Source: Gemmatimonadota bacterium (GTDB lineage Bacteria; Latescibacterota; UBA2968; UBA8231). From it: 58,947 nucleotides of DNA. The stretch covers positions 1 through 58,947 of the forward strand of contig JAYPJE010000022.1 of NCBI GenBank assembly GCA_038128265.1, in the 5' to 3' direction. Numbering within the stretch: position 1 is the first letter of the stretch; each line of letters starts with the position of its first letter. Both the position numbers and the translations under genes were made by a program. Below the pieces are notes generated by a model. The model ran no database searches. It saw nothing but the letters and a program-made list of their open reading frames with translations, and had not been told where the DNA came from. Positions 29,221 through 58,947 of this stretch are shown here, in pieces.

Positions 29221-32200
29221 TCAACGCAGCAGCAGCAAGCGCCGCACGTGCGTTTTATCGCCCGCATGCAGCCGATAAAAGTAGGTGCCCGAAGATACAG
29301 CCCGCCCTCCGGCATCGCGCCCATCCCAGCGCACCTGGGGCAGGCCCGGTGCCCGCGCACCGGCATAGAGCGTGCGTATATTTTGTCCCAGCGCGTTGTA
29401 TATAGACAGTTCAACGCGACGTCCCTCGCCGACGCCAATCGCAAAGGGTATGGTCGTCTCCGGATTAAATGGATTCGGATAGTTGGGTAACAGCGCGCTG
29501 TGCTGTGGCTGCGCGGATACGGCATCAACCTGCAGGTCGACCAGCGAACCATCGGCGCGCAAGACCTGCCCACCCATTAGACGAGCTTCGACGGGTAGCA
29601 GCAGCAGGTCTTCCACGCTCTCCAGAGCAACCCGCGATTCGGCAAGGGCGATAACCAAACGCGTCGCCCCGCCTTCGTCCCAGGCATGCATGTGGTATGC
29701 GCGCTCTTCCCACGCCGTTCCCCGCAGAGAAAGCGACGCGGCGTCGGCGTCGAGCAAGAGCAGCGTTATCGCCGTTATCGCCTCGGGGCTTTGCAGGCGC
29801 AGAACGCCGTCTTCCCCTCGGACAACAGGCAGGCTAAATGGGACTTCTTTGGCCACCGGGTTTTCCGCCAACTCCATGCCTATGCGACCAAAGTTTTCGG
29901 CCAGCAGCATAAAATCGTCAATGCCCACCTGTCCATCGCCGTTAAAATCGGCGCGGCGCGCCTCGGGCTCGACGGTTGTATTGCTATTAAAGAAGTCAAC
30001 CAATTGACCAAAGTCTGCTAGGTTAATTCGATTGTCATCGTTTGCATCGCCCGCCGGCAGCGGCACGCTTAGCTCTTCGGTCGCCCACTCAAACTGCAGC
30101 GGCTCTTCCGCCAGTTCGCCACCAATGGTGACCGGTCCATCGACCACGTGTCCCTGAAGGTGCGTATCTGCTTTCACCAGCAAGCTATAGGTCCCCGGGG
30201 GGATCTGAGCCAACTTAAAGGCACCCTGCCCATCGAGCGTGTGCTGTATGCCCTCTTTAAATCGATTTTCATCGTTTATAGGCGATGACAGTAACTGTCC
30301 TTCCGCGTCGTAGAAGTGCAGCGAAACCTGCACATTCGCATTGTCGATGTCTCGTGCCTGCAGCGCGACTTGTCCACGCACGGTATAGTCACGCGCAACA
30401 ATCTCAATAGGCTGCTCTGGGATAAACGGCGGAATCCACTGCCCGGTATCATCAACCACTGCACTGATGCGGTTGAGCCGCGGCTCTTCGTCTATGCGAA
30501 TTTGCGCCGTGACGTCGCCGGTAGTGACAAAACGCACTTCGCCCAACAGCACCGGATCGACTCCAGCGTCAATTAGCGGCAAACCCATGCTTTGCACCAA
30601 GGACAGATTGACCCGCCCCGCTTCGCCACCGTGCAGGGCATTTTCGATAGCGCGCCCCTCAAATGCACGGGCAACTCGGAAGGGCTGGACATCGACTAAT
30701 TCCCCTCCCTCGGCTAGCGCTTCGCCCGTCAACTCGTCGACCAAGTCGAGGCCTTCGGCATCATAGCTCATGTAAATGGAGACACCCGTCAGCACGTGAG
30801 CGGTCGGCACGATAAAGGCGCGCACGACCAGCGTATCGCCAATGCTAAAGCGTGCCTCATCGACCACTTCAAGCTGAAAAAAAGGCGATGGCTGCGAAAC
30901 GGCCCACACCGTGTCGGAAGGCGTTGATTCGACGCTGGCATTACCGGCGACGATGTAGTAGTAAAACGTGTCGGCGAGCGTGGCGGCCGGGTCAATAAAG
31001 CGCCGGCTGCCGGCCAGTAGCGTATCGACAGCCGCGTAGTCTCCCCCGCGCTCAGCGGAGCGGAACACGGTGTAGCGCGTCGTGCGCCCCAGCTGTTCGT
31101 CCAGTTCAGGCGCTTGCCAAACAACTTCCACCTGACGCCCCAAGTCGCGGCCCAAATCGCGCGCCTCTACTCCACTGGGCGGGCGCGGTGGATCGCCGAG
31201 ACGTGCATCTTCGTTAAGAAAAACCTGTATTTGCTGTTCACTGGCGGACAGTGCAGCGATATCGTTGGCTCCATCGCCGTTCAGATCGGCGACCGCCACC
31301 CTGCGCACGGGCACCTGCGAGGTGATAATGTCGCGCACGACGAGGCCCGTGCCTCCATCGTTTTCCAGAAAGGCGATATAGTCCCCGCTCCCCCCGGCAA
31401 CGACCAGGTCGCTGAACACATCGCGCGTGAGATCGGACAGCGCCATATCGGTCAGCGGTACATTGACGTTCACGCGCTGCAGCAGCGTCAACTGACCGCT
31501 GCCGTCGTTGAGCAGCACGGCGACATCGCGCGAGCCACGACTCCCCGCCAGCACATCGTTGTCGCCGTCCGCATCAAAATCGACCATGTGGACGCTGATG
31601 GGCTCCTGTCCGACGACGTAGTCCTGGCGCGTCAAAAACCCGCCTCCCGGATCAGCCAGTATAACTGAGACCGTTCCAGAAGTCCTGTTGGCTACGACCA
31701 GGTCGCGATGGTCATCGGCATTGAGGTGTCCGGCAGCTAGCGCCGCTGGCCCAGTGCCGGCATCAATGGATACGCGCGCGTTAAAGTTGCCGCGCCCGTT
31801 GTTATACACGACGGTCACCGAAGCATCATCGCTATTGGCCGTTGCAATATCGACGTCGCCGTCCGCATCGAGATCGGTCGCCAGCACATCGGATAGCACG
31901 TGGCCTATATAGACGTCGCTGCGCTGTCCGTCAAAGCCACCCTGACCGTCGTTGGCCAACAGCGAAACGGAGCGCGCTACCGGATCGGCCACGACTAGAT
32001 CGGGCACCGTGCCAAAAATGGGCGCTACGGCAAGAGCTGCCGGTTGGTCCCACGAACCGTAAGATGCCGTCTCCGAAGGGTACGAAGCTAGGGCAGCAAA
32101 CGCGCCGGCACCGTCGTTTATATGCACGCGGATTTTACCACCGGCACTGTCGGCCAGTACCATATCGGCAGCACCGTCGGCATTGAGATCAGCGACGAGC

Positions 32201-34167
32201 AAATCGGCCGAACCGCTGCCGGCATCCAAGCGCTCCTGCGCGCGCAGTGCCAGTGCACCGCCGGCACCAACGAGCTGCACCTGCATGCTCGACAGACGTC
32301 CCGGGGCATCGCTTTCCACGGTCAGCACACCGCGCTGTTCGCCTGCTTCAATGGGAAAAAAGCGCAGACCGAGCGCGTAGACTTCACCGGGCGCGATGCT
32401 TTTTGGCTCTTCGCCGTCGATGCTAAACGCTTCCCCCTGCAGCGACAGGGCGCGGATATTGAGCGGCGCATTGCCGCTATTAGAGATAGTCAGAGACTGC
32501 ACGCGCGCCGTGGCGATGTCCACCGTACCAAAATCCACATCCATACTAGAGAGGCTGATATCGGGCGCCGTCCCAACGCCGTCAAAGGGCACGTTGCGGT
32601 GCGTGCCATCCCCATCTACAATGACCAGCTGCGACGAAATGCCACGCGCCACCAGCGGAACAAAACGCACTCGGAGCAGGGCTTTTTGGCCAGGTGATAG
32701 CGCTGCTGGCAGTGCGTTGAGCAGGCGAAAGGAGCTGTCTTCGAAAAAGGCATTGCGCAGTTCTAAAACGGCGTTGCCCTCATTGCTAAGGGCCACAGTC
32801 GTGTCGACATATGCCCCCACGCGCACCGCGCCAAAGCGCACGGCACTGGGCTGCGCTCTCAGCTGAGCTTGGACCCCTATTCCCAATAGGGAGATGCCGG
32901 TACTGCTGGCAAATAGATCGTTGCTGCGCACCATCATATTGGTCGACACCGACCCGCGCTGCTGCGGCTGGAAGCGCACCTGCACGCGTTCGGTCTGCCC
33001 CGCCTCTACTGTCAGCGAAGCCGGACTCACGCCAAAAGCGCTTTCCCGGTCGACATTAATATTCGACACCACCAGCGGTGCCTGACCGTCGTTGCTTATA
33101 TCGAGCGAAAGCGATGCAGTCGCGCCGACGGCGATTTGGCCAAAGTTTAGCTGAGTCGCGCTGAAGCGCGCGCGCGCCTCCGGGGCAAACTGCAGCGCGT
33201 ATATACCGCTGCTCCGCGTCAGACCGAGCAAGCGCCCATCGACCCCCGGCACCACGCCTATCCAGCGCGCGGCCAAATCGCTCAGTCCTTCGTTGATGGC
33301 GACCCAATTGCTACCGCCGTCGCGCGTGCGAAAAAAGCCCCCTGCCGCCGTCGCAGCATAGTACAGCGCCGGCACATCTGGATCGATAGCAACCACGCGT
33401 ACGTTGTGGTCTTCTAAGCCATTGTTGGCCGCACGCCAGCTGCCACCGCTATCGTCGCTAATAAATACGCCGCCTCCGAACGCACCGGCAATAATCAGTC
33501 CAGGCGAAGTGCTCTCGTCGCCGATGACGATGCTGCGCACGCTCTGTCCGGCCAGATCGCCCACGACCTGCCAACTAGAACCTCCATTGCGGCTCACATA
33601 GAGCCCGCGCCCCGTGCCCGCATAGACCGTAGCGCTCTCCAATGGATGAGCCGCCAAGGCAAAGACAATTTCGGAGACCAGTTCACCGCCGGCTGCGCGC
33701 CACGACAGACCGCGGTCTTCGCTCAGATAAATTCCCTCTCCAAAGGTCCCCGCATAGACGCGCCCCTCTGGTCCGGCGCTTAAGGACAGCACGCCGCTGA
33801 CGACAGACGACTCCCTGCGCCACTGGCGACCTCCGTCGCCGCTCATGAATAGACCGGTATTGGCACCGGCATAGAGCTGAGTAGGCCTTTCGGGATCCAC
33901 AGCCAGGCTCAGCACGCTGCGATCGACCAGTTCTGCCCCACTGGGCAACCACGTCTGGCCCCCGTCGCTGCTGCGGTAAAAGCCATCAACCGCACCGGCA
34001 AAGAGCGTATCGGTACGACTAGCGTGAACCTGCAGCACGTTGACCGCTGCACCCAGTCCCACACCCTCACTCGTCCACTCGTTGATACCAGCTACAGCAC
34101 CCGTAGTCGGCACCAGACAGCTCAGCGCACACAGCAGCGCACAGTATGTTTTCCTTAGGTCCTTCAT
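29221..34167 (-). CDS. Large secreted protein: BNR/Asp-box propeller, ASH-type Ig domains, FG-GAP propeller, FN3, cohesin-like, dockerin, FlgD-Ig/T9SS-like tail
   Basis: Signal peptide; S.DGG.(T/S)W repeats; (L/V)(N/D)FG...SN.G.A.L Ig repeats; DLNADG/DLDADGD/DFDADGD repeats; dockerin GDANDDNRINLADF...ADFNGDGQVGIDDF; NYPNPFNPETTI...WDGRD...LLLLR. Confidence 0.85.
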   Translation of the reverse strand: MKDLRKTYCALLCALSCLVPTTGAVAGINEWTSEGVGLGAAVNVLQVHASRTDTLFAGAVDGFYRSSDGGQTWLPSGAELVDRSVLSLAVDPERPTQLYAGANTGLFMSGDGGRQWRRESSVVSGVLSLSAGPEGRVYAGTFGEGIYLSEDRGLSWRAAGGELVSEIVFALAAHPLESATVYAGTGRGLYVSRNGGSSWQVVGDLAGQSVRSIVIGDESTSPGLIIAGAFGGGVFISDDSGGSWRAANNGLEDHNVRVVAIDPDVPALYYAATAAGGFFRTRDGGSNWVAINEGLSDLAARWIGVVPGVDGRLLGLTRSSGIYALQFAPEARARFSATQLNFGQIAVGATASLSLDISNDGQAPLVVSNINVDRESAFGVSPASLTVEAGQTERVQVRFQPQQRGSVSTNMMVRSNDLFASSTGISLLGIGVQAQLRAQPSAVRFGAVRVGAYVDTTVALSNEGNAVLELRNAFFEDSSFRLLNALPAALSPGQKALLRVRFVPLVARGISSQLVIVDGDGTHRNVPFDGVGTAPDISLSSMDVDFGTVDIATARVQSLTISNSGNAPLNIRALSLQGEAFSIDGEEPKSIAPGEVYALGLRFFPIEAGEQRGVLTVESDAPGRLSSMQVQLVGAGGALALRAQERLDAGSGSADLLVADLNADGAADMVLADSAGGKIRVHINDGAGAFAALASYPSETASYGSWDQPAALAVAPIFGTVPDLVVADPVARSVSLLANDGQGGFDGQRSDVYIGHVLSDVLATDLDADGDVDIATANSDDASVTVVYNNGRGNFNARVSIDAGTGPAALAAGHLNADDHRDLVVANRTSGTVSVILADPGGGFLTRQDYVVGQEPISVHMVDFDADGDNDVLAGSRGSRDVAVLLNDGSGQLTLLQRVNVNVPLTDMALSDLTRDVFSDLVVAGGSGDYIAFLENDGGTGLVVRDIITSQVPVRRVAVADLNGDGANDIAALSASEQQIQVFLNEDARLGDPPRPPSGVEARDLGRDLGRQVEVVWQAPELDEQLGRTTRYTVFRSAERGGDYAAVDTLLAGSRRFIDPAATLADTFYYYIVAGNASVESTPSDTVWAVSQPSPFFQLEVVDEARFSIGDTLVVRAFIVPTAHVLTGVSIYMSYDAEGLDLVDELTGEALAEGGELVDVQPFRVARAFEGRAIENALHGGEAGRVNLSLVQSMGLPLIDAGVDPVLLGEVRFVTTGDVTAQIRIDEEPRLNRISAVVDDTGQWIPPFIPEQPIEIVARDYTVRGQVALQARDIDNANVQVSLHFYDAEGQLLSSPINDENRFKEGIQHTLDGQGAFKLAQIPPGTYSLLVKADTHLQGHVVDGPVTIGGELAEEPLQFEWATEELSVPLPAGDANDDNRINLADFGQLVDFFNSNTTVEPEARRADFNGDGQVGIDDFMLLAENFGRIGMELAENPVAKEVPFSLPVVRGEDGVLRLQSPEAITAITLLLLDADAASLSLRGTAWEERAYHMHAWDEGGATRLVIALAESRVALESVEDLLLLPVEARLMGGQVLRADGSLVDLQVDAVSAQPQHSALLPNYPNPFNPETTIPFAIGVGEGRRVELSIYNALGQNIRTLYAGARAPGLPQVRWDGRDAGGRAVSSGTYFYRLHAGDKTHVRRLLLLR

Positions 34168-34187: not shown

Positions 34188-37100
34188 TCAGCGCAAGAGC
34201 ACCAGCGAGCGGCGATGACGCCGTCCGCCTTCGATAAGCTCGATGTAGTAAACCCCGCTACCGGAGATCATTCCCGCGTCATCGCGACCGTTCCAACCGA
34301 CACTCCATACCCCCACCTCTTGAAATTCGTCGACCAAGGCACGCACGGGCTGGCCCAGCGCATTGTATAGCAGCATGCGCACCGGCCCCGGTGATTCAAT
34401 GCGATACTCAATGGTAGCCACTTCCCCCACGCTTGCTGTAAAGGGATTGGGATAGCCGTTTAGCATGACCGTTTGGCGTATATTTTCCTCGCGCACAGGT
34501 CCCGCTCTAAACAGGCCCAGCTGATCGACCGACACGGCCAGCCAGCCAGTTTGTGGGTCGACGCTGGTCGATAGCTCATCCCACGTGCTCGTCACCTCAT
34601 TCCAGCGCAGAATGCCCTGCGGCTCATTGCCCACGGGGAGGAAGTTTATCGACACCGGCATAGCCAGTTCTCGGCCGCCCAACATATCAATCGAATAGAC
34701 TGGAAATCCCGCGCTGTTGGGCGGCAGTTCCGCCTCGCCCAATCGATAGATTATGGCCATCTGCCCAGGTAGGGCAGCGGCGTCGCTCACGTTGACGATC
34801 AGCTGCAGGTCGGGGCTGCGCACATTGCCGCCCTTTTCGTCGACCCAGTCCAGCGCGATTTCCTGCCTGCGCACACCAGCGTTACCCGCTCGGTCTACGC
34901 CGCTAATAATGGCTTCGGCAAAGAGTCCCTCTACATCGGGACCGTGATAAAACGACGCCTGATATCCTCCGTCGTCCCGCTCTTTGACTTCTAACGTGTC
35001 GCCGTTGACGGCGATTGTCGGGCTATCTAACAGCGCCTCGTCGGCCGTGGCGATAATTTCGACCAGCTCGCTGAATACCGGATGGCGCCGAACTTCGAGC
35101 GTGAACTCGGGAGGGCGCCCGTCTAACTCGATAATCACCTGCAGCGCTGCCACGGCCAGGTTGCCCTGCGGGTCGGTTACCGTTAGCGCAATGCTGCGCT
35201 GGCCTCGCTGCCCTGGAGGAATCGATATAAACAGACGGCTTTCTTCCAGCCGCGCGGATATACCAGCCGGTGCCTGCACGCTCCACTGCAGGTTCTCCAA
35301 CGGCGTATCGGCATCTTGCACAAAGACGCCCAAATCAATTTGTCGCTCTGCATCACCCGCCGTTAGCAACATCTGCGGCAGCGCTCCTATGACGGGCGCT
35401 TCGCCGCCGCGCACGACGACGACTTCCATAAGCGCGATTTCTGTATTACCGGACGGATCGATGACCACAAACTGCAGCTTCTCAATAGCCGGTATGGCCC
35501 CCGTTGCATCGAGTGTGACCACACGCGTAGCCGGATCGATAGAAACGCTGAGTACCTGTTGACCGCTCACGCTCCACACCAGATCGTCGTCGGGGTCGTC
35601 GTCGACAACGTAGTCATCCAGATCAAGCGAAGTATCCACTTCGCCCTCGGCAACCTGAATGCGCGGCAAAGAGCGCACCTGTGGCGCCAAACCAGGACCG
35701 TTCACCACGACCTGGAGCGACACCCTCTGCCTGCGCCCTGTCGCATCAACGGCGCTCAGTTGCAGTTCCTCTGTGCCCGTAAAGCCGGCATTGGTTAACA
35801 GCAGAAAGAGACGCGTTGTGCGCACATCGATCTCCGCGGAGATGTTCTCCGCAGGCTCGACGCTCCACACCAGCGATGGCGGCGCGGTCCCACCCCCACC
35901 CAGTGCGTATTCCTGCAGCACAATAGATGAATCAACGCGTCCGACAAACAGCTCTACCTCGGGCAGTGCCAGCAGCGAAAAGAGCGGCGGCAACCCCACC
36001 GTTACGAGGGCTGTGCGCTCCTGTCCGTTGGTATCTATCGCGCGCAGGACTACCTGCGTTGCTCCGCCCATATTTCCTGCGCTTTCGTCGCGCTCCAGCA
36101 CGAGATCGTGCGTCACCGGATCAAATGAGACCCGAACACCAGGCTCCGGCACAACCTGCCACACCAGCTCACTCTCGCGATCGACGTCGTCGTAGGCGTA
36201 ATCATCTAAATCGATCCGCACCGCAGCATTGGCGCTTTCCAGAATCACTTCGGGCAGTTCGGCCAACTGCGGCGCCTCCCCGGGGCGTGCCAACAGCACG
36301 GGAACCGTCGCCTCGTGGCTATTCCCCTGCGGATCGCTGGCGCGCAGGCCCAGTTCGGCGGGACTGGCAAAATCTAAGCCGGCCCATACGCTCAGCGTGC
36401 GGGAGGCGATATCCAACGCGACCTCTACACCCGTTGTGGGAAAAACCTCCCAGATAATGGCGTCGTCGGCATGGTCGGGGTCGGCCACCCACTCATCGAG
36501 TGCATAGTGGACAATCTCGTCTTGCCGCAGACCAATCTTGGCAACTGCTGCAATGCGCGGCCCCAAGTCGTCTTCGCTGCGCAGCACGCTAGCCAACAGG
36601 TGCTGTATATCGCTATTGCCGTCGGGATCGGTAACCGTAACGGTGAGATTCGCCGAGCCAGCAAAGCCGCTTTCGCCGCTTATCTGCAGAATCCCGCCCG
36701 GTATCGATGCAACCAATCCGCTATCGGCCTGTACTGACCAGGTCAGCGACTCGACTGGACTATCATCGACCACGCGCTCCTTCAGATCGAGCGATATCGA
36801 TTGCCCCCCGCGAAAGCGCAGTTCGGCCAGTTGCTCTAGCTCGGGCCCAACCGATGTGCCCTCCGCTAACCCTATGACGACCAAACGCGTAGATGCGCTG
36901 GCGCCGGACGTATCCTGCGCCGTTATGTGGACAATGCCGCGACCAACCTGTAGACTGCCGACCAAGAGGGCACCATCAGCAACTTCTGCCCGCACGCCCC
37001 CTTCGACTTCGAGAAATACCTGCAGTGCAGAAACAGCATCGTCCCGATCGCTCAGTATACTTTCCAGCGGTATTGCCATCGACGGAGCGCCGACAGTTGG

Positions 37101-38273
37101 ATAGACCGGCGGCAGCGATTCGGCTTCGGGTGCATCATTGACCGGCAGCACGTCCACTACGGCCCGAACGGTATCGGCTAACCCGGTCGGGTCGGCGACG
37201 ATAAACGCTACTTCTTCAGCGCCGAAGTAGTCCGCCTCGGGGTTGAATAGCGCGATGTGGCTATCGGCATTGATCTCTATTTCCATGTGAACGGTCGGCG
37301 CGGCCTCCCACATCAGTTCGGCAACGTCGTGGTCGAGATCTTCGGCAAACGCATCAAAATCGAGGTCCAAATATGGACTGTCTTCGGCAAAGCGAATGGT
37401 ATCGGGAAAATCGACGATGCGCGGCGTTGAAAGAACGGTTATGCGCACCGTATCGGCCGCGGTCAATCCACCGTCAATATCAAAGGCCGTAAATATCATT
37501 CCACGCGTGCCGACAAAGCCCGCGCGTGGACTCATCGTCACTTCGCGGGTATCTGGGTCGATGGTAGTAGGCACTTCACTGAGGCGCGAATGCGTCCACA
37601 AAACTTCTGTCGATAGCGTGTCGACATACTGATCCAAATCAAAGACTATCTGCGACGTGCCCTCAATAACAGTCACATCCGGCATCGGCCAAATGCGAAA
37701 CCCCGTAACCCGCACTTGGGCCTCTCCCAGCGGCTGGGCAAAGCGCTTCTCGATGCCCGGTTCGGTCGCCGTCACGTAGTGCGACATGCGGTCGTGACCT
37801 ATCTCCTCTATACGAATAGACTCGACCCCTTCCACCGATCGCCTTGCAACCTCGAGCTGAAAGCGCACCGCAACCCCGCTGCTATCGGCGCTCTGCCGCA
37901 CCGCTCCACCAGCCGCTTCTACATAGCTCAAGTAGACTCGGCCATCAATTTCTTCGGCGCTGTTTACCAGCGGTATGCCGCGCAGCAAACGGCCGCTGCT
38001 AAATGGCACGAGCGCACCGTCGGCGGCGATCTCAGCCGGCACTAGGGAAAACACATCGGCATCGTAGGACAGGAAGAGGCTATATCCCGTTAACTCCTCA
38101 TCGCCGGAATCGATAAACACTTCCACATCGATTACAGAGCCTAGCTCAGCGCTAAAGGCACTTTCCCCATCGGCGCGGCGCACTTCGGCGCGAGCAGCGG
38201 CATCGGCGGCCGTAGCCGCACCCAGCAGGGCCCACGTCAGTAGGGCCATTAAGCGCACCATAAACCCGCTCAT
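34188..38273 (-). CDS. Large secreted protein: N-terminal cohesin-like domain, tandem cadherin/Ig-like repeats, FlgD-Ig/T9SS-like tail (paralog of 42601-46887)
   Basis: Signal peptide; VEVFIDSGDEELTGYSLFLSYD (cohesin-like); repeats of DLD.YV.D.D...L.W...V.DP.GN; GYPNPF...WNGRDD...LVLLR. Confidence 0.82.
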   Translation of the reverse strand: MSGFMVRLMALLTWALLGAATAADAAARAEVRRADGESAFSAELGSVIDVEVFIDSGDEELTGYSLFLSYDADVFSLVPAEIAADGALVPFSSGRLLRGIPLVNSAEEIDGRVYLSYVEAAGGAVRQSADSSGVAVRFQLEVARRSVEGVESIRIEEIGHDRMSHYVTATEPGIEKRFAQPLGEAQVRVTGFRIWPMPDVTVIEGTSQIVFDLDQYVDTLSTEVLWTHSRLSEVPTTIDPDTREVTMSPRAGFVGTRGMIFTAFDIDGGLTAADTVRITVLSTPRIVDFPDTIRFAEDSPYLDLDFDAFAEDLDHDVAELMWEAAPTVHMEIEINADSHIALFNPEADYFGAEEVAFIVADPTGLADTVRAVVDVLPVNDAPEAESLPPVYPTVGAPSMAIPLESILSDRDDAVSALQVFLEVEGGVRAEVADGALLVGSLQVGRGIVHITAQDTSGASASTRLVVIGLAEGTSVGPELEQLAELRFRGGQSISLDLKERVVDDSPVESLTWSVQADSGLVASIPGGILQISGESGFAGSANLTVTVTDPDGNSDIQHLLASVLRSEDDLGPRIAAVAKIGLRQDEIVHYALDEWVADPDHADDAIIWEVFPTTGVEVALDIASRTLSVWAGLDFASPAELGLRASDPQGNSHEATVPVLLARPGEAPQLAELPEVILESANAAVRIDLDDYAYDDVDRESELVWQVVPEPGVRVSFDPVTHDLVLERDESAGNMGGATQVVLRAIDTNGQERTALVTVGLPPLFSLLALPEVELFVGRVDSSIVLQEYALGGGGTAPPSLVWSVEPAENISAEIDVRTTRLFLLLTNAGFTGTEELQLSAVDATGRRQRVSLQVVVNGPGLAPQVRSLPRIQVAEGEVDTSLDLDDYVVDDDPDDDLVWSVSGQQVLSVSIDPATRVVTLDATGAIPAIEKLQFVVIDPSGNTEIALMEVVVVRGGEAPVIGALPQMLLTAGDAERQIDLGVFVQDADTPLENLQWSVQAPAGISARLEESRLFISIPPGQRGQRSIALTVTDPQGNLAVAALQVIIELDGRPPEFTLEVRRHPVFSELVEIIATADEALLDSPTIAVNGDTLEVKERDDGGYQASFYHGPDVEGLFAEAIISGVDRAGNAGVRRQEIALDWVDEKGGNVRSPDLQLIVNVSDAAALPGQMAIIYRLGEAELPPNSAGFPVYSIDMLGGRELAMPVSINFLPVGNEPQGILRWNEVTSTWDELSTSVDPQTGWLAVSVDQLGLFRAGPVREENIRQTVMLNGYPNPFTASVGEVATIEYRIESPGPVRMLLYNALGQPVRALVDEFQEVGVWSVGWNGRDDAGMISGSGVYYIELIEGGRRHRRSLVLLR

Positions 38274-42274: not shown

Positions 42275-42455
42275 AGTATTTGCCGCACCCGGCTCGGCAC
42301 AAAGTGCTCGATCGACAGAGAAGTTTTTTCCCCGCACCAATACCCCTTGGCGGGACAATGCCCTCCTGCATAACGCAATATGTAGGGTTTTACGAACATC
42401 TATGCCCCCACGGGTCGGTTTGCATTCAACTTCTCATACAAGACACTCCATAGTT

Positions 42456-42472
42456 AGCAAACCCCGTTCCAA
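42456..42472 (-). promoter_or_regulatory. Putative sigma-54 (-24/-12) promoter
   Basis: Minus strand TTGGAACGGGGTTTGCT, i.e. GG-N10-GC with one mismatch to TGGCAC-N5-TTGC, just downstream of a terminator and upstream of the 42274 gene. Confidence 0.6.
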
Positions 42473-46887: not shown

Positions 46888-46898
46888 GCAGTAGCGCC

Positions 46899-50951: not shown

Positions 50952-51067
50952 GTTTTTCAACTTTTAGCCGACATATAAGACACAATTGCCTCATTTAGTA
51001 TATCGCGCTTAGCGGCATTTACTTTAACTACCACTTTCGCTTACATTAGGAAAAAATCTGCGTTTTT
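50952..51067. promoter_or_regulatory. AT-rich divergent promoter region
   Basis: Markedly AT-rich gap between two divergently oriented giant genes; TATACT on the minus strand at 50997-51002; no clear -35. Confidence 0.45.
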
Positions 51068-54000
51068 ATGCCCATCCAGCGACTCCACATTCTCATTTTT
51101 GCCTTTGTGGCCACCCTTGTAGGGGTTCCCTCTTCTCCCGCACAAACCATTTCGACGCTAGCGGGAACGGGCGGTCAGGGCTACGCCGGCGACGGCGGAT
51201 CGCCCACCAGCGCCGTGCTGAGTTTGCCCGCGGCGGTGTGGGGCGATACAACGGGCGTGCTCTTTATTGCCGATACGGGCAACAACGCGATCCGCCGGCT
51301 CAACGCTACCCGCGACACAATTTTCGCCTATGCAGGCAGTGGAACGGGGGGTTTTTCGGGCGACGGCGGCGCGGCCACAGCCGCTAAGCTCAGCGCACCC
51401 GGCGGCGTCTTTGTCGACAGCACCGGCGTCGTCTACATCGCCGATACGGGCAATAACCGCATTCGACGTATTGACGCCGGCGGCAACATTGCGACCATTG
51501 CCGGCAAGGACAGCGCCGGCTTCTCGGGCGACGGCGGCGCGGCCACAGCGGCCAAGCTCAGAGGACCAACAGCCGTTTTTGCGCGCGGTGGCTTTGTGTA
51601 TATCGCCGACACGGGCAACAATCGCATCCGCCGTATTGACGCCAGCGGCAATATTGCGACCATTGCCGGCAAGGACACGACGGCGGGCCTCTTTATCGAC
51701 GATACGGCAGCCACCCGCGCTACGCTGAACCGGCCCAGCGGCCTCTTCGTCGACCGCAACCACGACATCTACATTGCCGACACCAACCACCATCGGATTC
51801 GCAAACTAGCGGCCAGCGATAGCACGCTGACGACCGTCGTCGGCAGCGGCCTACCTGGGTCGACGGGCGACGGTGATCTGCCCATCCACGCGCGGCTGGC
51901 GTTTCCATCGACGGTGGTCGTCGACACGTTTGGCACAATATACGTAGCCGACCGCTTTAACCACCGCATTCGCCGCGCCAATCCGGCCGGCAATATCACC
52001 AGCATAGCCGGCCTGGGCACCTCGGCCTTCAGCGGCGATGGCGCCGCGGCCAACCGCGCCGAATTGGCCAGTCCAAACGGCCTTTTCCTGCGCGGCGATA
52101 CGCTCTTTGTGGCCGATCAGAGCAACCACCGACTGCGCAAAATCGCGCCGGACCACAGCGCGGGCCTGAGCGGTGCCAGCACGCTGGGCCCCGGCAGAGA
52201 GACCAAGCTGCTGAGTATTGCTCTGACCGGCGATGGATCAACCACGGTCAACGGCCTCAGCTTTACGGTGTCCGACCTGGCAACGGCAACCGGACTCAGC
52301 ACGGCCGACTTCAGCGAGTTTCGCCTCTACGAAAGCAGTGATGCAACGCTGGGCGACGATCAGCTACTCGGCCGGATCGACGCGGCCGACGTCACTCTCG
52401 GCACGCGCGCGACGATCGTCGCCTCGACGTTCTCTACGCCGGCCGCCGGCACGACGCGCTACTACATTCTTTCTGCGCGGCTGACGCGGACGGCGACGCA
52501 GGGACATGCCCTGCGCGTTTCGGCCCAAACCGGGGCTCTATCGACCGACACGGGCGGGCGCGGCGCGCGCATCTACGCACGCGACGCAGATAAGATAACG
52601 GTCGATGCGGTCGCGACTAAGCTGGTATTTCACACCCAGCCCAGCGGCGGTTTCACCGGCGCGGCACTAAGCCGCCAGCCCGTAGTCGAAGCCGTGGACG
52701 ACAGCGGCTTTGTCGACTACGACTTTCGCGACACGCTGGTCGTCAGCAGTTCGGGCAGCGGCACCCTGCTGCACAACACGGCCATTGCCGACAGCGGCCG
52801 GGCGACGTTCGACAACCTGAGCTACAGCACGGCCGTCGACGACGAATCGATTACGCTCAGCGTGAACAATGTGGCCGACCCGGCGCACGCGGCGCTAACA
52901 GCCGCTCAGTCCAACGCTCTCACCATTAACGTTGTCAACGACCCGCCGACCGTCAATTTCCCCTCACTCGTCTTCCGAGAGGACGAAGAGTTGGGCTACC
53001 GCGTGCTTGTCCGCGACATCGTATCCGATGTCGATGACACCACGTTCACCTTTACTTTTAAGAGCAGCCATATTGTCGCACGCGCGACCGCAGACAGCCT
53101 TATTGTCCTACCCGCTGCCAATTTTTTCGGCATCGACACGCTGACCGTAACGGCCATTGATGCCTTTGGCCTGCAGCACAGCGATAGCGGCATTATCGAA
53201 GTACAGGCCGTCAACGACGCCCCGGCATTGAATTTACCAGCCAGTTTACAGTGGGCCGAAGACGAGACGCTGCACGTCGATATGACGACCCAAGTTAGCG
53301 ATGTGGACAACGACTTTTCCAGCTTACAGCTGAGCTTTGTTGCATCCGATGGCCTGTCGCAGCGCTACACCAGCACCAGCGGCCAGCTGCAGCTGTGGAC
53401 TGCACCCGATGCCAGCGGCACCTTCTCGCTGGACGTGCAGGCCAGCGACGGCCTGGCAAATTCCGGCACTAAGACCGTCGCTATCCAGATAGAGCCGCGC
53501 AACGACCCGCCGCAGATCGCCCTGCGCGATACGTCGATCCTGCAGGGCGGGAGCGTTGTCGTCGACTTGGCCAGCGCGACTGTCGATATAGACGACTCTC
53601 TCAGCGCGCTGCGCTGGAGCGCGGCCAGCGATTCTCTGATCGACATTGAGATTGACAGTGCGGGTCGGGCAACGGTGCGACCGGTGGGCACGTTCTCGGG
53701 GGTGCGCGACCTCCCCTTCAGCGTGGCCGACTCGAGCGGAGCCAGCGCGGCTGACACGCTGCGCCTAACGGTCCTGCGCGTAAATCAGCCGCCCACACTT
53801 TCCGGCCTGCCCGACGCGCAGATGGCTCCCGGCGACACGCTGCTCGTCGATCTGACACAGTACGGCTCCGACCCAGATGACTCATCGTCTAGCCTGATCT
53901 GGAGCGTGGGGTCTACAGCCACGACCCAAACCCTTCTCAGCGGCAGCGCGTTGCGCCTCATCGCTCCGACAAGCGCAACATCCTATACGGAAAATATCAG

Positions 54001-55732
54001 CGTGCGCGTCTTCGACCTGCTGGGATTTTCCGCGCAGGATACGTTTACCGTGCGCGTTGAGGCTCTGCAGCCCCCAATCACCGCGTTGCCCGACCTCTCG
54101 TTCAGTGCCGACAGCACGCTCACAGTCGACCTGCAGCCCTACCTGTCAGCGGAGGTAAACTCGCTGGCCGCAGCACCCAACGATTCGCTCCATATTACCA
54201 TCGATGTGGAAGAAAAAAAGGCCGTCGTGAGCACGCGCGACGGCTTCAAAGGCGAGACAACGCTGATACTACAGGCCAGCACCGAAAGAGGCGCAACCGG
54301 CACCGACACCGTCGCCATTAATATCACCAACCCCTCGCCAACGCTGCGCACCTTTCCGGAGCTCTTTGTCGACGCCGGCGCCTCCATCCAACTCGAGTTG
54401 GACTCCTACGCACAGGACGACGAAGCGCTGGCACACCTGCGTTGGAGTGCTCTGCCCGACGCCGGCCTGCAAATTAGCATTCACGGCACGCTGCACATCG
54501 CCACGATCAGTGCCAGCAGCGAGGCACGCGGTCCACGCCGCGTGGTCTTTACGGCCACCGATGCACAGGGCGCCAGCGCCACCGACACCTTGCGCCTAAC
54601 CGTGCACAGTCCAGACGACGCTACGGCCACCAATATCGCACCCAGCCTGCGCGATCTGCCCGCGCTCTTTATCGATGCGGGCACCGGTGCCCAACTCGCA
54701 CTGGACACGTATGCCCAGGACGACCAGCCGCTGCAGTTCCTGCGCTGGAGCGCGCAGGCCGATTCCGGCCTATACGTGACCATCGACGATTCGCTACGCC
54801 TGATCACCGTCTTGGCCGATAGCACCAGCGCCGGCCTGCTGCGCGTGGCGCTAACGGCCACCGACGCCCAAGGCGCCAGTGCCACTGACACCCTACAGGT
54901 CACTGTGCACGAGCAGACAAACGGGGCAGGCAGCAATAGCACGCCCATCCTTGACGGCTTGCCACCGCTCTTTATCGACGCCGGCACAGCTACGCAACTG
55001 GCGCTGAACAACTACGTGCAGGACGACCAGCCACTGCGGTTTCTGCGCTGGAGTGCGCAGGCCGATTCCGGCTTATACGTGACCATCGACGACTCGCTGC
55101 GCATCGCTACCCTAGCCGCCGATAGCACCAGCGCCGGCGCGCTGCGCGTGCTATTCACCGCGACCGATGCCGAAGGGGCCAGCGCTACCGACACGCTGCA
55201 CGTCACCGTGCACGGCCTGGGCGCGGACGATGGCCCACTCATCATCAACAAGGCCCCCACTTTAGCCGCCATTCCATCCCAGCAATTCAACAGCGATGCA
55301 ACCATTCGCCTACTCCTCGATCGCTATGCGGCGGACGATGCACCGAAAGAACAATTAGCATGGAGCGCGCTGGCTACACCGGAAGAAATCGTTCGCATAG
55401 AAATTGATTCGCTGGGCGCAGCCACCCTCTCCGCCGTGCAGCCAGGCCGCGCCGAAGTTATCTTCACCGCCACCGATGCCGGAGGACTGAAGGCGAGCAC
55501 ACGCGTGGAGTTGGTCATTTTGCCACCGCTAAGCGAAAAGCCAACCGGCGATTTCAACGACAACTGGCGCGTCGACTACGAGGACTTTTTTCAGCTTATC
55601 GACGCCATGGGGCTGACGCCGCTCCACCCCGATTGGGAACCCACCCTAGACCTAGACTTCGACGGCCGCATCTCCATCGACGACTTTTTCATTTTTGCCG
55701 ATTCGTTTAACGCCCACAATACGGGACGCTAA
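51068..55732 (+). CDS. Large secreted protein: NHL-repeat propeller, tandem Ig/cadherin-like repeats, C-terminal dockerin
   Basis: Signal peptide; GF.GDGG.AT.A.L..P...YIADTGNNRIRRID NHL repeats; VNDPP/VNDAP/VNQPP Ig linkers; GDFNDNWRVDYEDFF...DLDFDGRISIDDFFIFADSF at the C-terminus. Confidence 0.87.
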   Translation: MPIQRLHILIFAFVATLVGVPSSPAQTISTLAGTGGQGYAGDGGSPTSAVLSLPAAVWGDTTGVLFIADTGNNAIRRLNATRDTIFAYAGSGTGGFSGDGGAATAAKLSAPGGVFVDSTGVVYIADTGNNRIRRIDAGGNIATIAGKDSAGFSGDGGAATAAKLRGPTAVFARGGFVYIADTGNNRIRRIDASGNIATIAGKDTTAGLFIDDTAATRATLNRPSGLFVDRNHDIYIADTNHHRIRKLAASDSTLTTVVGSGLPGSTGDGDLPIHARLAFPSTVVVDTFGTIYVADRFNHRIRRANPAGNITSIAGLGTSAFSGDGAAANRAELASPNGLFLRGDTLFVADQSNHRLRKIAPDHSAGLSGASTLGPGRETKLLSIALTGDGSTTVNGLSFTVSDLATATGLSTADFSEFRLYESSDATLGDDQLLGRIDAADVTLGTRATIVASTFSTPAAGTTRYYILSARLTRTATQGHALRVSAQTGALSTDTGGRGARIYARDADKITVDAVATKLVFHTQPSGGFTGAALSRQPVVEAVDDSGFVDYDFRDTLVVSSSGSGTLLHNTAIADSGRATFDNLSYSTAVDDESITLSVNNVADPAHAALTAAQSNALTINVVNDPPTVNFPSLVFREDEELGYRVLVRDIVSDVDDTTFTFTFKSSHIVARATADSLIVLPAANFFGIDTLTVTAIDAFGLQHSDSGIIEVQAVNDAPALNLPASLQWAEDETLHVDMTTQVSDVDNDFSSLQLSFVASDGLSQRYTSTSGQLQLWTAPDASGTFSLDVQASDGLANSGTKTVAIQIEPRNDPPQIALRDTSILQGGSVVVDLASATVDIDDSLSALRWSAASDSLIDIEIDSAGRATVRPVGTFSGVRDLPFSVADSSGASAADTLRLTVLRVNQPPTLSGLPDAQMAPGDTLLVDLTQYGSDPDDSSSSLIWSVGSTATTQTLLSGSALRLIAPTSATSYTENISVRVFDLLGFSAQDTFTVRVEALQPPITALPDLSFSADSTLTVDLQPYLSAEVNSLAAAPNDSLHITIDVEEKKAVVSTRDGFKGETTLILQASTERGATGTDTVAINITNPSPTLRTFPELFVDAGASIQLELDSYAQDDEALAHLRWSALPDAGLQISIHGTLHIATISASSEARGPRRVVFTATDAQGASATDTLRLTVHSPDDATATNIAPSLRDLPALFIDAGTGAQLALDTYAQDDQPLQFLRWSAQADSGLYVTIDDSLRLITVLADSTSAGLLRVALTATDAQGASATDTLQVTVHEQTNGAGSNSTPILDGLPPLFIDAGTATQLALNNYVQDDQPLRFLRWSAQADSGLYVTIDDSLRIATLAADSTSAGALRVLFTATDAEGASATDTLHVTVHGLGADDGPLIINKAPTLAAIPSQQFNSDATIRLLLDRYAADDAPKEQLAWSALATPEEIVRIEIDSLGAATLSAVQPGRAEVIFTATDAGGLKASTRVELVILPPLSEKPTGDFNDNWRVDYEDFFQLIDAMGLTPLHPDWEPTLDLDFDGRISIDDFFIFADSFNAHNTGR
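51350..51678 (+). repeat. Two highly similar NHL-repeat units (period about 165-168 nt)
   Basis: tcgggcgacggcggcgcggccacagc recurs at about 51356 and 51524; attgccggcaaggaca recurs at 51497 and 51662. Confidence 0.8.
54361..55215 (+). repeat. Three tandem 303-bp Ig-like domain repeats
   Basis: gctcttt(g/a)tcga(c/t)gc(c/g)ggc at 54361, 54664 and 54967; copies 2 and 3 are nearly identical over long stretches (e.g. gcgcaggccgattccggc, tatacgtgaccatcgacga). Confidence 0.85.
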
Positions 55733-55739
55733 GCCCCGG

Positions 55740-58700
55740 TCAGCGAATGCGCTTTAGCACGCGCATGCCGAATGTGCTCAGACGCACATCGGGGGCAAAA
55801 AAGGCCCGCGCGGCCGAGCGCGTCATTTCGGCGCTAAGCAGCGCCCCTCCGCCGCGCAGCACGCGGTCGCTTCCCACCGCTGGCCCCTGCGGGTCGGTCT
55901 GGTCGACGGCAGGATACGCAGCATAGCGATCCTGCACCCATTCGCTGGCGCTGCCGTGCACGTCGTACAGATCCCACGGATTGGCTCGCTTTGAGCCGAC
56001 GGCATGCGTTATCAGCTCGCTAACGACCGGGGGCACGGTGCGCGTCCACGCGTAGTCTACCAGCATGGATTCATCGTCGCCAAACGACCAGCGCGTGCCG
56101 GTGCCAGCGCGCGCGGCGTACTCCCACTCGGCCTCGCCCGGCAGGCGGTAGAGCGAATCTCCGGCCGCCGCATTAAGCGCTTGCACGAAGGCCTGCGCAT
56201 CGCTCCATGAGATGTAGACAGCTGGATGGCGACCATCTTCCAGCACGGCTGGCTGGCCGGACCAGGGCGCCGTGCCCATTACGGCGCGCCACTGGGCCTG
56301 CGTCACCTCATACTGGCCCAGATAGAAGTCGCTCGACAGCGTTACCTTCCGCTGCGGCCCCTCGTCTTCTAGACGCCCCACTTCGGTAGCAGGCGATCCC
56401 ATCGAAAACGATCCGGCGCGCACCAGCACAAAGTGCATATCTACGCCGCCGGGCAACGCATCCACCACGCTTAGCGGCAGCACCTCCTCGCGGGCCGTCG
56501 TATCGATCAGACTCGGGTCGCATGGTCGGGCAAAAGCCTCGGTAAATGCAAAGAAATCGCTGAAATCGACGCGGCCGTCGCCGTCGAGGTCAAAGCGGGT
56601 CGACGCCGTCTGACCAAAGGCATCGCCAAAGAGGAATAGATCGGCAAAGTATACGCGGCCATCGCCGTCGAAATCGGCGCGACAGGCCAATGACAGACCA
56701 ACTTCTTCTACGTCAAAGAGGAAGGGCGTGGGATCCGCACCATCTACGGTGCGTCCATCGGCACGCCGCGTGTGCACGTCGACGCTCAGCCCGGTAGCGG
56801 CGGCCGGGTTGACTACGTCGGCCAAGACCAAGGCATAGGATCCGGCCGGCTCGTTGGCTAACACCTCGACGACCAGCGTGCTGCGCGACGACAGGCCGTC
56901 CACCCTGGCCAATGGCCCAGCACTCGGCCCGCGCGAAGCCTCATCGAGGCGCGCCTGGCTCAGATCAAATCCCTGCGGAAAACGCAGGGCGATCTGGTCG
57001 CCGGCCCTCAGCGGCGATGCCGTGCTAAAATCTACTGCCACCGCCCCGCGCCGATTGGCCTGGCGTTCTGCCAGTTCGACGCGCATCAGATCGACGAAAC
57101 CGCTGGCCCGATGCAGAGGTCCGACGACCGGCTCTCCGCCGCTCCACGCCGGCAGACCGCTAACTTGTCCAGCTCCCCCCTGGAGGCGCTCTACTACAAC
57201 CCGCACTTGGTCGGCCGCGGCCAGCGCCGCAGAGAATTCGCCCACCACTAAGTAGTGCACCGTGCGGCCGCTGGCCAGCGCCGGCGCGGCCAGCGTCAGA
57301 TCGACCCGTCCCTGCGCATCGACAGCGCTGGCGGAGACGACGACGGAGGAATCACCGCTGTCTACTGTAGCATCCGCTGCCGCATCGATCCGCACGTCAA
57401 TGGACCGTAGTGCACCGGCGGCCCCACCGAGCGTCTCCACGCGCAGCGTGGCGCTCTGCGGCGCAATGGCCTCGCCGCGCGCCTCTAGGGCGAAGGACGC
57501 CAGCGCAATCGTCGGTCCACCCACGCCAGCTAATCCACCCAACGCATCCTCGAGCACCGCTCCAGGCCGCAGCAGCAGCTGACCAACCACGGCTATGCCG
57601 GGCGGATTATCTGCAGGTTGATCAACGAGAGCACCAGTGCTGCTGCGCGAGTAAACGACAATGCGCGCGTCGCGCTGCGCCGCCTCGGGCAGGATAACGC
57701 GATCCAGCTCTAGAACAAAGTCACCCGCCTCTTCACGCTCCGCCAAATCGAGTATGAGCATCCCGGACAAACTGTCGGCGCGCAGCGCAGGCAGCGCTCC
57801 TGAGGGGGTAGCGACTCGGGCCAATTGGGCGTTGCCCGTGCCAAAGCCCGGTGGAAACTCCAGGACAAGTTCATCGCTGGCACCCAGTGCCGTAGCCGTG
57901 CGAAAACGCAGGCGCACGGCCGCCACCGCCCCAACGTGGGCCGGCTGCACGACGACGCTATCCACTCGCATTTTGCCTATGCCGATAAGACTGAGCCTTA
58001 GCGGCTGTGCATCATCGGCATCGATGACTTGCCCATCGGCACGCCGCGTGCGCAAACCGATGTTCATCGGACCATCCGCCGTGCGCGGATTGCCGACGTC
58101 GCTCAGGACAATCTCGTAGCGCCCCTTGGTTTCGGCGGCCGCCATTTCGAGTAAGAGTGTCTGCCCTGAAGACTCGGCGGCACGGCGCGGGTCCGAACCG
58201 CTGGGGGTGCGCGTCGCCGGATCTACACCGGCAACCGATAGGTCAAAGCCACTCGGAAAATCGATGGCAATTTGCTCGCCGAGCAGCAAGTCGCTCACGG
58301 TATCAAAGACAATCGTTACCGCGCCGCGCTGGCCCGTGCGCGGGTTTTCCAACGCGGCGCTAATCGCATCAACGGCACCGGTTACCGTATGCACGCGCCC
58401 CTCCACTTGACTGACGGGCTTGGCTGGGGCAACGCCCGTGCCCAAACCGTTGCCAACGCGTAGCCCACTCAGATCAATGCGCAGCCAGTCCGTTGCGCGC
58501 AGCGTTGGTTCGAGCTCGGCAACAATGAGGTAGTGGCGCAGCGTATCGGCCGGGAGCGTATCGCGCACCGCGGCCAGCAGTTCGACCCCGCTGCCGGCGG
58601 CAGCCAGTCCCTTTACCAACACGGACGCTTCGCTGCTATCGACGCGCCCGTTGGCATTGGCGTCATATACGACGTCGACCTTGCGCACTTCCTCGCTGCT

Positions 58701-58947
58701 AAAGCCCTCAAAAGTTGGTCGCAGCCTATATTCTTCAACCGGCACGCGTTCGCCTTCGGCACGCAGGGCAAAGGCGTTTAGGACGATGGCGCGCCCCCCC
58801 ACACCGGCCAGACGGTCGAGGGCATTGCGTGCCACTAGGCTGTCCGCTGACAAAACGGCCAAGCCCCCCGGCAGGGCGACTCTACTGCTCAGCACCGGCT
58901 GGAACGTTCCGCTGCGGGCTTCCAGGAGAATAAAGTCTGCTCTATTA
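55740..58947 (-). CDS. Large secreted-type protein (5' end outside window): repeated beta-sandwich modules, dockerin, C-terminal FGE-sulfatase/SUMF1 (CLec-fold) domain
   Basis: Frame stays open to the window edge; ADFDGDGRVYFADL...FDLDGDGRVDFSDFF dockerin; FSMGS, YEVTQAQW, HPAVYISWSDA, YRLPGEAEWEYAARAG, NPWDLYDVHG..SEWVQD, RVLRGG. Confidence 0.85.
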   Translation of the reverse strand, partial: NRADFILLEARSGTFQPVLSSRVALPGGLAVLSADSLVARNALDRLAGVGGRAIVLNAFALRAEGERVPVEEYRLRPTFEGFSSEEVRKVDVVYDANANGRVDSSEASVLVKGLAAAGSGVELLAAVRDTLPADTLRHYLIVAELEPTLRATDWLRIDLSGLRVGNGLGTGVAPAKPVSQVEGRVHTVTGAVDAISAALENPRTGQRGAVTIVFDTVSDLLLGEQIAIDFPSGFDLSVAGVDPATRTPSGSDPRRAAESSGQTLLLEMAAAETKGRYEIVLSDVGNPRTADGPMNIGLRTRRADGQVIDADDAQPLRLSLIGIGKMRVDSVVVQPAHVGAVAAVRLRFRTATALGASDELVLEFPPGFGTGNAQLARVATPSGALPALRADSLSGMLILDLAEREEAGDFVLELDRVILPEAAQRDARIVVYSRSSTGALVDQPADNPPGIAVVGQLLLRPGAVLEDALGGLAGVGGPTIALASFALEARGEAIAPQSATLRVETLGGAAGALRSIDVRIDAAADATVDSGDSSVVVSASAVDAQGRVDLTLAAPALASGRTVHYLVVGEFSAALAAADQVRVVVERLQGGAGQVSGLPAWSGGEPVVGPLHRASGFVDLMRVELAERQANRRGAVAVDFSTASPLRAGDQIALRFPQGFDLSQARLDEASRGPSAGPLARVDGLSSRSTLVVEVLANEPAGSYALVLADVVNPAAATGLSVDVHTRRADGRTVDGADPTPFLFDVEEVGLSLACRADFDGDGRVYFADLFLFGDAFGQTASTRFDLDGDGRVDFSDFFAFTEAFARPCDPSLIDTTAREEVLPLSVVDALPGGVDMHFVLVRAGSFSMGSPATEVGRLEDEGPQRKVTLSSDFYLGQYEVTQAQWRAVMGTAPWSGQPAVLEDGRHPAVYISWSDAQAFVQALNAAAGDSLYRLPGEAEWEYAARAGTGTRWSFGDDESMLVDYAWTRTVPPVVSELITHAVGSKRANPWDLYDVHGSASEWVQDRYAAYPAVDQTDPQGPAVGSDRVLRGGGALLSAEMTRSAARAFFAPDVRLSTFGMRVLKRIR

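Follow-up and report, generated by a model that had tools for sequence, protein, structure and literature searches.

Introduction

The closest described relative of the system reported here is the anchoring half of the Acetivibrio (Clostridium) thermocellus cellulosome, in which the C-terminus of CipA has the order cohesin (Coh), X module, dockerin (Doc) (CohI9-X-DocII; 3kcp, 4fl4, 2b59) and type II anchoring scaffoldins such as SdbA have a type II cohesin at the N-terminus, followed by a long spacer and, at the C-terminus, a surface signal. OlpB is likewise a type II anchoring scaffoldin, and cipA and olpB are neighbouring genes, in that order. Here we examine seven very long genes (G1 to G7) in a 58,947-nt stretch of DNA, hereafter the window, which comprises positions 1-58947 of contig JAYPJE010000022.1 (our contig C22) in a 4.29 Mb, 84% complete genome of a Gemmatimonadota bacterium assigned by GTDB to Latescibacterota (GCA_038128265.1). 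Two types of gene stand out: A, which shares the Coh-X-Doc order and fold of the CipA C-terminus, and B, which shares the plan of SdbA, both ending in a C-terminal sorting domain (CTD) of a type IX secretion system (T9SS). Our preferred interpretation, to which we assign a probability of about 0.58, is that they encode a T9SS-exported, largely non-catalytic surface scaffold which reuses the cell-anchoring half of the cellulosome as an adhesive or capture coat.

The differences from A. thermocellus are several. The host is a diderm and the surface signals are T9SS CTDs, whereas those of A. thermocellus are SLH or sortase signals; unlike CipA, the A protein has a CTD of its own and an extra cohesin after the dockerin, with one or two cohesins and immunoglobulin (Ig)-like stalks instead of a tandem array and CBM3; and the dockerin-bearing proteins carry propellers and Ig domains, not the glycoside hydrolases of the cellulosome. 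Type II cohesin-dockerin pairs are reported to act in surface attachment in clostridia (PMC12484212).

A cellulosome-like system has been described for Ca. Stygibacter (Cloacimonadota), also an uncultured diderm of the Fibrobacterota-Chlorobiota-Bacteroidota (FCB) type with a cohesin scaffold that bears a conserved C-terminal domain and with dockerin-bearing secreted proteins, both systems being predicted only. As presented in that source (PMC8542988), it has one 3,755-aa scaffoldin with tandem cohesins and carbohydrate-binding modules (CBMs) and carries dockerins on GH18, GH57 and peptidases, whereas the present locus has A/B pairs and X-dockerins and lacks recognised enzymes. For Cloacimonadota, systems of cohesins and dockerins with a CTD have already been proposed; a description of the A-B pair was not found in the literature searched, an earlier one in Farag 2017, Peer 2009 or Adams 2006 being possible.

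Non-cellulosomal modules are likewise found outside cellulose degradation in the Clostridium perfringens NagJ cohesin (2ozn), an Archaeoglobus cohesin (2xdh), the NCBIfam family dockerin_GC (NF041540) and 'L. sulfuriphilus', whose genus we take to be Limihaloglobus. The last of these is reported to encode a Coh2-Doc1-Coh1 protein (PMC11557425). Among these cases, as compared here, we saw no recurrent A-B pair, no partners that both carry T9SS tails and no sigma54-type site.

A Recurrent Pair of Putative Scaffold Genes

The initial annotation had placed seven consecutive giant genes at 29221 to 58947, and seven long open reading frames (ORFs) are indeed found there (Table 1). Its further proposal that the seven constitute one assembly unit did not hold, since the conserved core is a pair of genes that recurs at other loci: A (Ig-Coh-X-Doc-Coh2-CTD; G3 and G5, which are 32% identical over their full length) followed by B (N-terminal cohesin, Ig stalk, CTD; G2 and G4). 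The clustering itself is conserved in related genomes, as that annotation had anticipated, with G3 followed by G2 in 12 of 12 loci, selected as strong G3 matches, and then by G1 in 11 of them. The G5-G4 pair lies upstream of G3 in six of the 12, another A-B pair takes that place in one, none is present in one, and the position lies beyond the contig end in four. Two further A-B loci per genome occur in the same family, one with two A genes divergent from the B gene (C6) and one in which B follows an A gene that the contig start truncates in this genome but that relatives have complete (C49). Outside the family, the comparison covered 15 loci in four further families, drawn from 15 of the 24 non-family genomes that match the B profile. 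Each of them has a B gene; immediately upstream lies A in 11, a truncated but compatible gene in two and the end of the contig in two.

Table 1. Genes, domains and a promoter-like site in the cluster (window coordinates).
Feature	Position	Strand	Description
G1	29221-34167	-	BNR propeller, three ASH Ig domains, FG-GAP propeller, FN3-like domain (by eye), A-type tail
G1 Coh1	30394-30891	-	
G1 X		-	
G1 dockerin	29884-30057	-	
G1 Coh2	29524-29847	-	degenerate
G1 CTD		-	
G2	34188-38273	-	B-type; Big_9 tandem stalk
G2 cohesin	37689-38195	-	N-terminal, type II-like
G2 CTD	34191-34478	-	
G3	38270-42358	-	A-type scaffold; likely start 42274
G3 Ig-like domains	40025-42214	-	five
G3 Coh1	39533-40015	-	
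G3 X	39206-39532	-	
G3 dockerin	38990-39190	-	
G3 Coh2	38582-38947	-	
G3 CTD	38273-38548	-	
Promoter-like site	42457-42471	-	sigma54-type (-24/-12), TGG-N8-TTGC, about 185 nt above G3 start
G4	42601-47007	-	B-type; likely start 46887; Big_9/cadherin-like stalk with acidic linker
G4 cohesin	46324-46827	-	N-terminal, type II-like
G4 CTD	42604-42876	-	
G5	46899-50960	-	A-type scaffold; likely start 50951; signal peptide, five Ig-like domains
G5 Coh1	48174-48653	-	
G5 X	47847-48173	-	
G5 dockerin	47598-47825	-	type II-like
G5 Coh2	47190-47552	-	
G5 CTD	46902-47177	-	T9SS-type
G6	51068-55732	+	candidate cargo; NHL propeller, Big_9 stalk, no CTD
G6 dockerin	55541-55717	+	C-terminal, symmetric
G7 (part in window)	55740-58946	-	3' part of longer gene; beta-sandwich repeats, no CTD
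G7 dockerin	56523-56684	-	symmetric
G7 FGE domain	55755-56435	-	FGE/C-type-lectin fold

Presence of the system in the phylum is patchy, with matches in 5 of the 31 genomes of one genus (g14) and in none of several single-contig genomes rated more than 90% complete. In two of the distant families (f2 and f4), the B gene is closely followed at six loci (L125, L126, L127, L131, L132 and L133) by an O-antigen-ligase (Wzy_C) plus TPR gene, a candidate for glycosylation or anchoring of the scaffold.

Identity of the Modules

The cohesins and dockerins of the cluster are genuine homologues. All 12 segments that the initial annotation had named as dockerin- or cohesin-like fall on dockerin or cohesin domains, and the duplicated Ca-binding segments that it saw in five proteins are confirmed by both Ca loops in G1, G3, G5, G6 and G7; it had overlooked the X modules, the degenerate second cohesin of G1 and the T9SS sorting domains of G1 to G5. 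The Pfam families it named gave a divided result, with FlgD_ig over cut-off in G1, G3, G4 and G5, Dockerin_1 in G1 only and Cohesin in none of the seven proteins; a paralogue on contig C6 passes the Cohesin cut-off.

A profile of 72 homologues of the C-terminal 584 residues of G3 matched the type II X-dockerins 4wi0, 4u3s, 3kcp and 2b59 in PDB at E 2e-12 to 8e-12 (4wi0_B at E 1.7e-12), the type II cohesin dyad 3l8q at E 2.8e-4 and, in its Coh2 part, the NagJ cohesin 2ozn at E 1.8e-4. A second profile, made from 47 N-terminal domains of the G2/G4 type, matched SdbA-like type II cohesins at E 3e-4 to 6e-3, among them 3l8q, 5g5d_A and SdbA itself (2bm3) at E 3e-4 to 2.4e-3; the assignment of the B cohesins and of Coh2 is by profile alone, at E 2e-4 to 6e-3. 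Among 707 copies of the seven proteins with shuffled or reversed sequence, none reached E<0.01 with any of six module profiles built from this protein family, a control which shows only that composition does not yield matches.

The AlphaFold model of the G3 C-terminal part has a mean pLDDT (predicted local distance difference test) of 90.1 and a pTM (predicted template modelling score) of 0.65. Its Coh1 matches the solved cohesin 6kge (Z 13.8, root-mean-square deviation (rmsd) 2.5, 133 residues), in agreement with the cohesin-like fold first proposed; the best Z values for Coh1 are to type I cohesins, and the fold does not settle the cohesin type. Coh1-X-Doc aligns as one unit with CipA Coh9-X-DocII 3kcp (Z 13.4, 276 residues, rmsd 6.9), the X-Doc part gives a fold match of Z 9.8 (rmsd 3.5, 148 residues), and the dockerin helices lie at model residues 300-308 and 333-341. 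Loop 1 of the dockerin carries an insertion in G3 and G5, as in the ScaA X-dockerin 4wi0.

An X module directly precedes the dockerin in G1, G3 and G5. There is none in G6 and G7, which belong to a separate dockerin class, two-fold symmetric with FxDFFxF-like helices, that is common to seven other proteins of the genome; seven of these nine proteins have no CTD. The G7 dockerin scores 26.4 bits on dockerin_GC (NF041540; cut-off 29). A stand-alone type II-like cohesin with a signal peptide is encoded elsewhere in the genome (C2:24996-25667, +), with a short basic-motif tail in place of the CTD, and short ORFs matching its profile are present in many relatives.

Predicted Type IX Export

G1 to G5 end in a T9SS-type sorting domain, which is absent from G6 and G7. 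TIGR04183 is over cut-off in G1, G3 and G5 and under it in G2, whose CTD scores below cut-off in both Pfam and NCBIfam; the model of the last G3 domain matches the PorU CTD 6za2 (Z 12.0, rmsd 2.3, 91 residues). The genome encodes SprA (593 bits, cut-off 200), PorU (657 bits, cut-off 420; its gene adjoins a PorV gene) and 12 matches to the PorV family, 10 of which are over cut-off, 4 of these only with neighbours, and 109 of its ORFs match the CTD profile. A PorZ-like gene is under cut-off, and GldM/GldN gave 0 matches in the 84%-complete genome, a search whose controls were equally silent. The signal peptide, the C-terminal Ig-like domain and the presence of SprA, PorU and PorV are shared with Bacteroidota T9SS type A cargo as reported (PMC5445135, PMC11285876), and the export genes support the diderm lineage suggested at the outset. 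A second PorU-like (C25-type) protein (C29:27111-32537, -; 263 bits, under cut-off) is a candidate for linker processing.

A Predicted Sigma54 Promoter

The site upstream of G3 has the sigma54 -24/-12 consensus and reads as a predicted sigma54 promoter for the G3-G2-G1 unit. TGG-N8-TTGC is found upstream of 13 of 14 G3 orthologues, 14 of 17 genes of the C6A2 class and 12 of 13 C6B genes, at an expectation of 0.048 per 420 nt, and rpoN is present in the genome over cut-off. With a matrix trained on these three sets of sites, 7 distant-family B genes outside the training set exceed the 99th percentile of the background; the corresponding counts are 0 of 13 for G1, 2 of 18 for G2, 0 of 6 for G4, 1 of 12 for G5 and 1 of 11 for G6. 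Sigma54 control of the cargo genes was considered and is unsupported, no symmetric-dockerin gene of the genome reaching that percentile, and a scan for sigma70 promoters and terminators gave nothing above shuffles.

Proposed Pairing Specificity and Assembly

Selection falls on the dockerin, which is the most conserved domain in five of six orthologue groups (0.59-0.76). At 12 helix positions that we take, following the usual dockerin numbering, to face the cohesin, identity is 0.73 within groups and 0.17 between them, compared with 0.57 and 0.31 for the X module and 0.57 and 0.45 for the CTD, and the dockerin helices are paralogue-specific. The B cohesin is conserved clearly above its stalk in C6B (0.64) and G4 (0.37) only, and slightly in C49.

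On our preferred reading of a surface scaffold, G1 to G5 would be exported by Sec and then pass the outer membrane via SprA/PorV by means of their CTDs, the components being present and their use presumed from Bacteroidota. The B proteins G2 and G4 would form long surface Ig stalks with the type II-like cohesin at the tip, anchored in the manner of SdbA/OlpB but by a CTD where those have SLH. The neighbouring A protein would dock on the B cohesin through its Ca-loaded X-dockerin, G3 on G2 and G5 on G4, with a code of its own for each pair, and the remaining cohesins of A and G1 may accept the G1 X-dockerin together with the symmetric dockerins of propeller/Ig proteins that lack a CTD, for example G6 and G7. 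The G3-G2-G1 unit would be under sigma54 control, its site being conserved. Latescibacteria-related groups are reported to attach to model particles (PMC8359284), which fits adhesion but is no test of it in this organism.

If true, this would put the anchoring half of the cellulosome to work in a diderm, coupled with type IX export and free of recognised enzymes, in about a third of the genomes of the phylum. The role of non-cellulosomal cohesins and dockerins would become testable with small soluble domains and with partners predicted by gene order, and paralogue-specific X-dockerin/cohesin pairs could yield new orthogonal tags for designer scaffolds.

A survey of 168 genomes of the phylum also speaks for this reading: the X-Doc profile was matched in 62, the B cohesin profile in 61, both in 59, one only in 3 and 2 and neither in 104. 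A number of observations weigh against it. The co-occurrence is partly built in, as Coh1 of A proteins is matched by the B profile too, and counts related genomes which are not independent; loci were checked individually because of this overlap. One family locus (L136) has a B gene with no A gene upstream, and one distant locus (L135) has two A genes and no B within 20 kb. The A proteins own a CTD and so, unlike CipA, may need no B for anchoring, and the passage of the CTD-less G6 and G7 across the outer membrane is left unexplained by the model. Conservation of the B cohesins is only modestly above that of the stalks, and in G2 not at all (0.46 vs 0.41-0.55). The matrix scan found no sigma54-type site at G5, G6, G7 or the other dockerin genes of the genome. 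A predicted complex of G3 Coh1-X-Doc-Coh2, the G2 cohesin and two Ca, which weakly favours G3-G2 binding, scored 0.39 against 0.00 for the best control, a weak score that comes with no interface, while runs share at least 85% of contacts and the partner pLDDT is at least 82. In the prediction benchmark, passes at or below 0.60 came from only 18 of 157 solved complexes and from both of the two mismatches (of 215) that passed; a pass at that level is more often wrong than right unless binding was likely beforehand, and it may reflect likeness to solved Coh-XDoc structures. Finally, the binding of these proteins, like their partners, anchoring and function, is inferred.

An unlikely alternative is a cross-linked mesh or sheath, in which each subunit would be exported by its own CTD and X-dockerins would bind not only B cohesins but also Coh1 of further A/G1 proteins; the product would be a branched lattice like an S-layer or electron-dense layer, not one-to-one tethers. 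Each A protein does bear plug and sockets alike, the genome has more type II-like cohesins than X-dockerins (10 vs 5 detected), Coh1 is homologous to the B cohesin (G1 Coh1 scores 8e-12 on the B profile), and in P. gingivalis and T. forsythia T9SS cargo is reported to build surface layers (PMC5445135). The strict A-then-B pairing and the paralogue-specific dockerin helices, however, suit dedicated pairs better, and the long Ig stalks seem unlike lattice tiles.

The Coh2-CTD Tail

Among pooled proteins that have a dockerin and a terminal CTD, Coh2 immediately precedes the CTD in 110 of 110, the pool being enriched by a query that contained the Doc-Coh2-CTD tail; in the unselected source genome it does so in 7 of 7. 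The Doc-Coh2 linker, the low-confidence stretch of the G3 model, carries a basic [AGYF]K motif in 85 of 117 cases, compared with 4 of 135 segments before the CTD, and a T[AS][VI] motif precedes 17 of 26 plain CTDs, 4 of 131 Coh2-CTDs and 5 of 48 B-type CTDs. The A proteins of families f2 to f4 repeat the unit (XDoc-Coh2-Doc-Coh2-CTD), and genera without B cohesins have stand-alone Coh2-CTD genes, one such genus having Doc-Coh2-CTD proteins as well. CTD-less dockerin genes occur in 6 of 15 stand-alone Coh2-CTD loci, a count with no background rate for comparison. In genus g19 (L101, L103, L104, L106 and L116), runs of CTD-less dockerin proteins (LRR, LDL-receptor-B, CARDB, FG-GAP) lie beside near-identical stand-alone Coh2-CTD genes. 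As a lead from the ESM Atlas, Coh-CTD clusters occur in several FCB phyla, and the cluster resembling the Coh2-CTD protein of a relative is commonest in Ca. Latescibacterota.

Tentatively, and against the odds, Coh2-CTD could be an extended T9SS sorting unit that acts both in cis and in trans. In cis it may cap the dockerin in the periplasm and would be removed by cleavage at the basic linker, so that the mature protein ends in the dockerin. In trans, free-standing Coh2-CTD proteins with a signal peptide would ferry dockerin proteins that lack a CTD (G6, G7 and five others in this genome) across the outer membrane or onto it by cohesin-dockerin docking, which, if true, would be a new T9SS export route for proteins lacking a CTD. 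It is distinctly improbable that the dockerin mainly binds the Coh2 that follows it, with Doc-Coh2-CTD as a self-contained export/anchoring tail and the cluster as a set of separately displayed adhesins, even though the fixed place of Coh2, the repeated units of families f2 to f4 and the Doc-Coh2-CTD proteins of a genus without B cohesins would all fit. Of the folded domains, Coh2 shows the lowest conservation in the orthologue groups (0.24-0.59; in G3, 0.26 vs 0.61 for the dockerin), and its poor conservation in A proteins tells against the sorting unit and cis pairing alike; cis pairing would in addition leave the B genes and the A-B linkage unaccounted for. The surface scaffold remains our preferred reading of the A and B proteins.

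Candidate Cargo and Catalytic Content

The 14 dockerin-bearing ORFs of the 84%-complete genome contain no catalytic Pfam family of glycoside hydrolases (GH), polysaccharide lyases or carbohydrate esterases. The only catalytic-family match over cut-off among them is the G7 FGE-like domain, without a cysteine in its C-terminal 236 residues, and a match in C34 to GH2 'domain 5' concerns a 103-position domain of non-catalytic size that overlaps Big_1. Pfam scans of 21 proteins found no CBM3 or CBM2 family, and the fourteen further proteins scanned gave Ig, FN3, propeller and CBM96 families. There are no tandem cohesins in the genome, with at most two non-adjacent cohesins per protein. The system is like the anchoring tier of the cellulosome but without two features that define cellulosomes, namely a scaffoldin with tandem cohesins and a CBM, and dockerin-bearing enzymes that degrade polysaccharides.

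The view of the initial annotation that no glycoside hydrolase or lyase domain is present stands for catalytic families over cut-off, save the G7 domain, and is less secure for G1, where the propeller resembles GH74 and GH73 and deacetylase genes follow. The best PDB matches of the G1 propeller include GH74 (1sqj, E 2.8e-14 over 170 residues), DAIP and Ycf48 propellers, and it reaches 107 bits on a 'glycosylhydrolase' model with a cut-off of 175; G1 has a single BNR propeller of about 300 residues, whereas GH74 chains have 737-789. The N-terminal 731 residues of G3 model as beta-sandwiches only (AF2, mean pLDDT 90.1), with no catalytic fold among the best matches. Because this fold search gave no match above Z 9.4 and covered only two of the five domains well, no new fold is claimed; in the ESM Atlas the best score is 0.82 and leads to Ig-like families only. 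A degradative cellulosome-like complex, of the kind proposed in Ca. Stygibacter (PMC8542988) and, according to a second-hand account, in Latescibacteria with cellulosome-affiliated enzymes (PMC7081726), would suit the GH74 likeness and the genes behind G1, but it would need enzymes that are unrecognised (the G1 propeller, an N-terminal domain on C20) or missing from the genome, and in view of the non-catalytic dockerin-bearing ORFs, the beta-sandwiches of G3 and the short G1 propeller it is the least probable of the readings.

The C20 gene (23538-28541, +) encodes a Doc-Coh2-CTD protein that is a possible hidden enzyme: its N-terminus matches DUF1565 weakly and shows, by eye, beta-helix-like repeats. 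For the FGE/C-type-lectin-fold domain of G7 the best PDB match is TvpA (2y3c), and the C-terminal motif of G7 is kept in three orthologues. G7 was rejected as a target of a diversity-generating retroelement, as no template repeat was found in the 84%-complete genome, where blastn of the last 761 nt gave only matches of 50 nt or less.

Gene Layout and Neighbouring Genes

G5-G4 and G3-G2-G1 lie on the minus strand, and G6 is divergent from G5 and convergent with G7. A single seven-gene operon is ruled out by these strands and by the lack of G7 in three relatives (G003, G004 and G007); more broadly, G7 is missing beside G6 in several relatives. The G3/G2 junction is an ATGA overlap, and G4 starts 11 nt past the G5 stop. 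A frameshift or artefact was rejected, the orthologues being full-length. Signal peptides were assigned by eye. The G7 gene, of about 2,800 aa, is interrupted by a 10-N assembly gap after the window and resumes at C22:58945-64170, with NHL and FG-GAP propellers in this upstream part; its two parts are joined in the ORF of one relative, and another relative has a single 2,284-aa ORF.

Right after G1 lie a GH73/Bax-like gene and a PgaB-like polysaccharide deacetylase gene (27165-29224, -), which may share its transcript; the GH73 gene is kept in 6 and the deacetylase gene in 4 of the relatives' loci. Further along the window (16193-21917, -), a run of propeller genes (Vgb-like, BamB-like) and a PD40-plus-Omp85 gene form a cluster of the outer-membrane assembly type. 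Past the G7 gene is an OmpA-domain protein (C22:64357-65130, +), homologues of which adjoin the G6/G7 end or other A/B loci in 7 of the relatives' loci.

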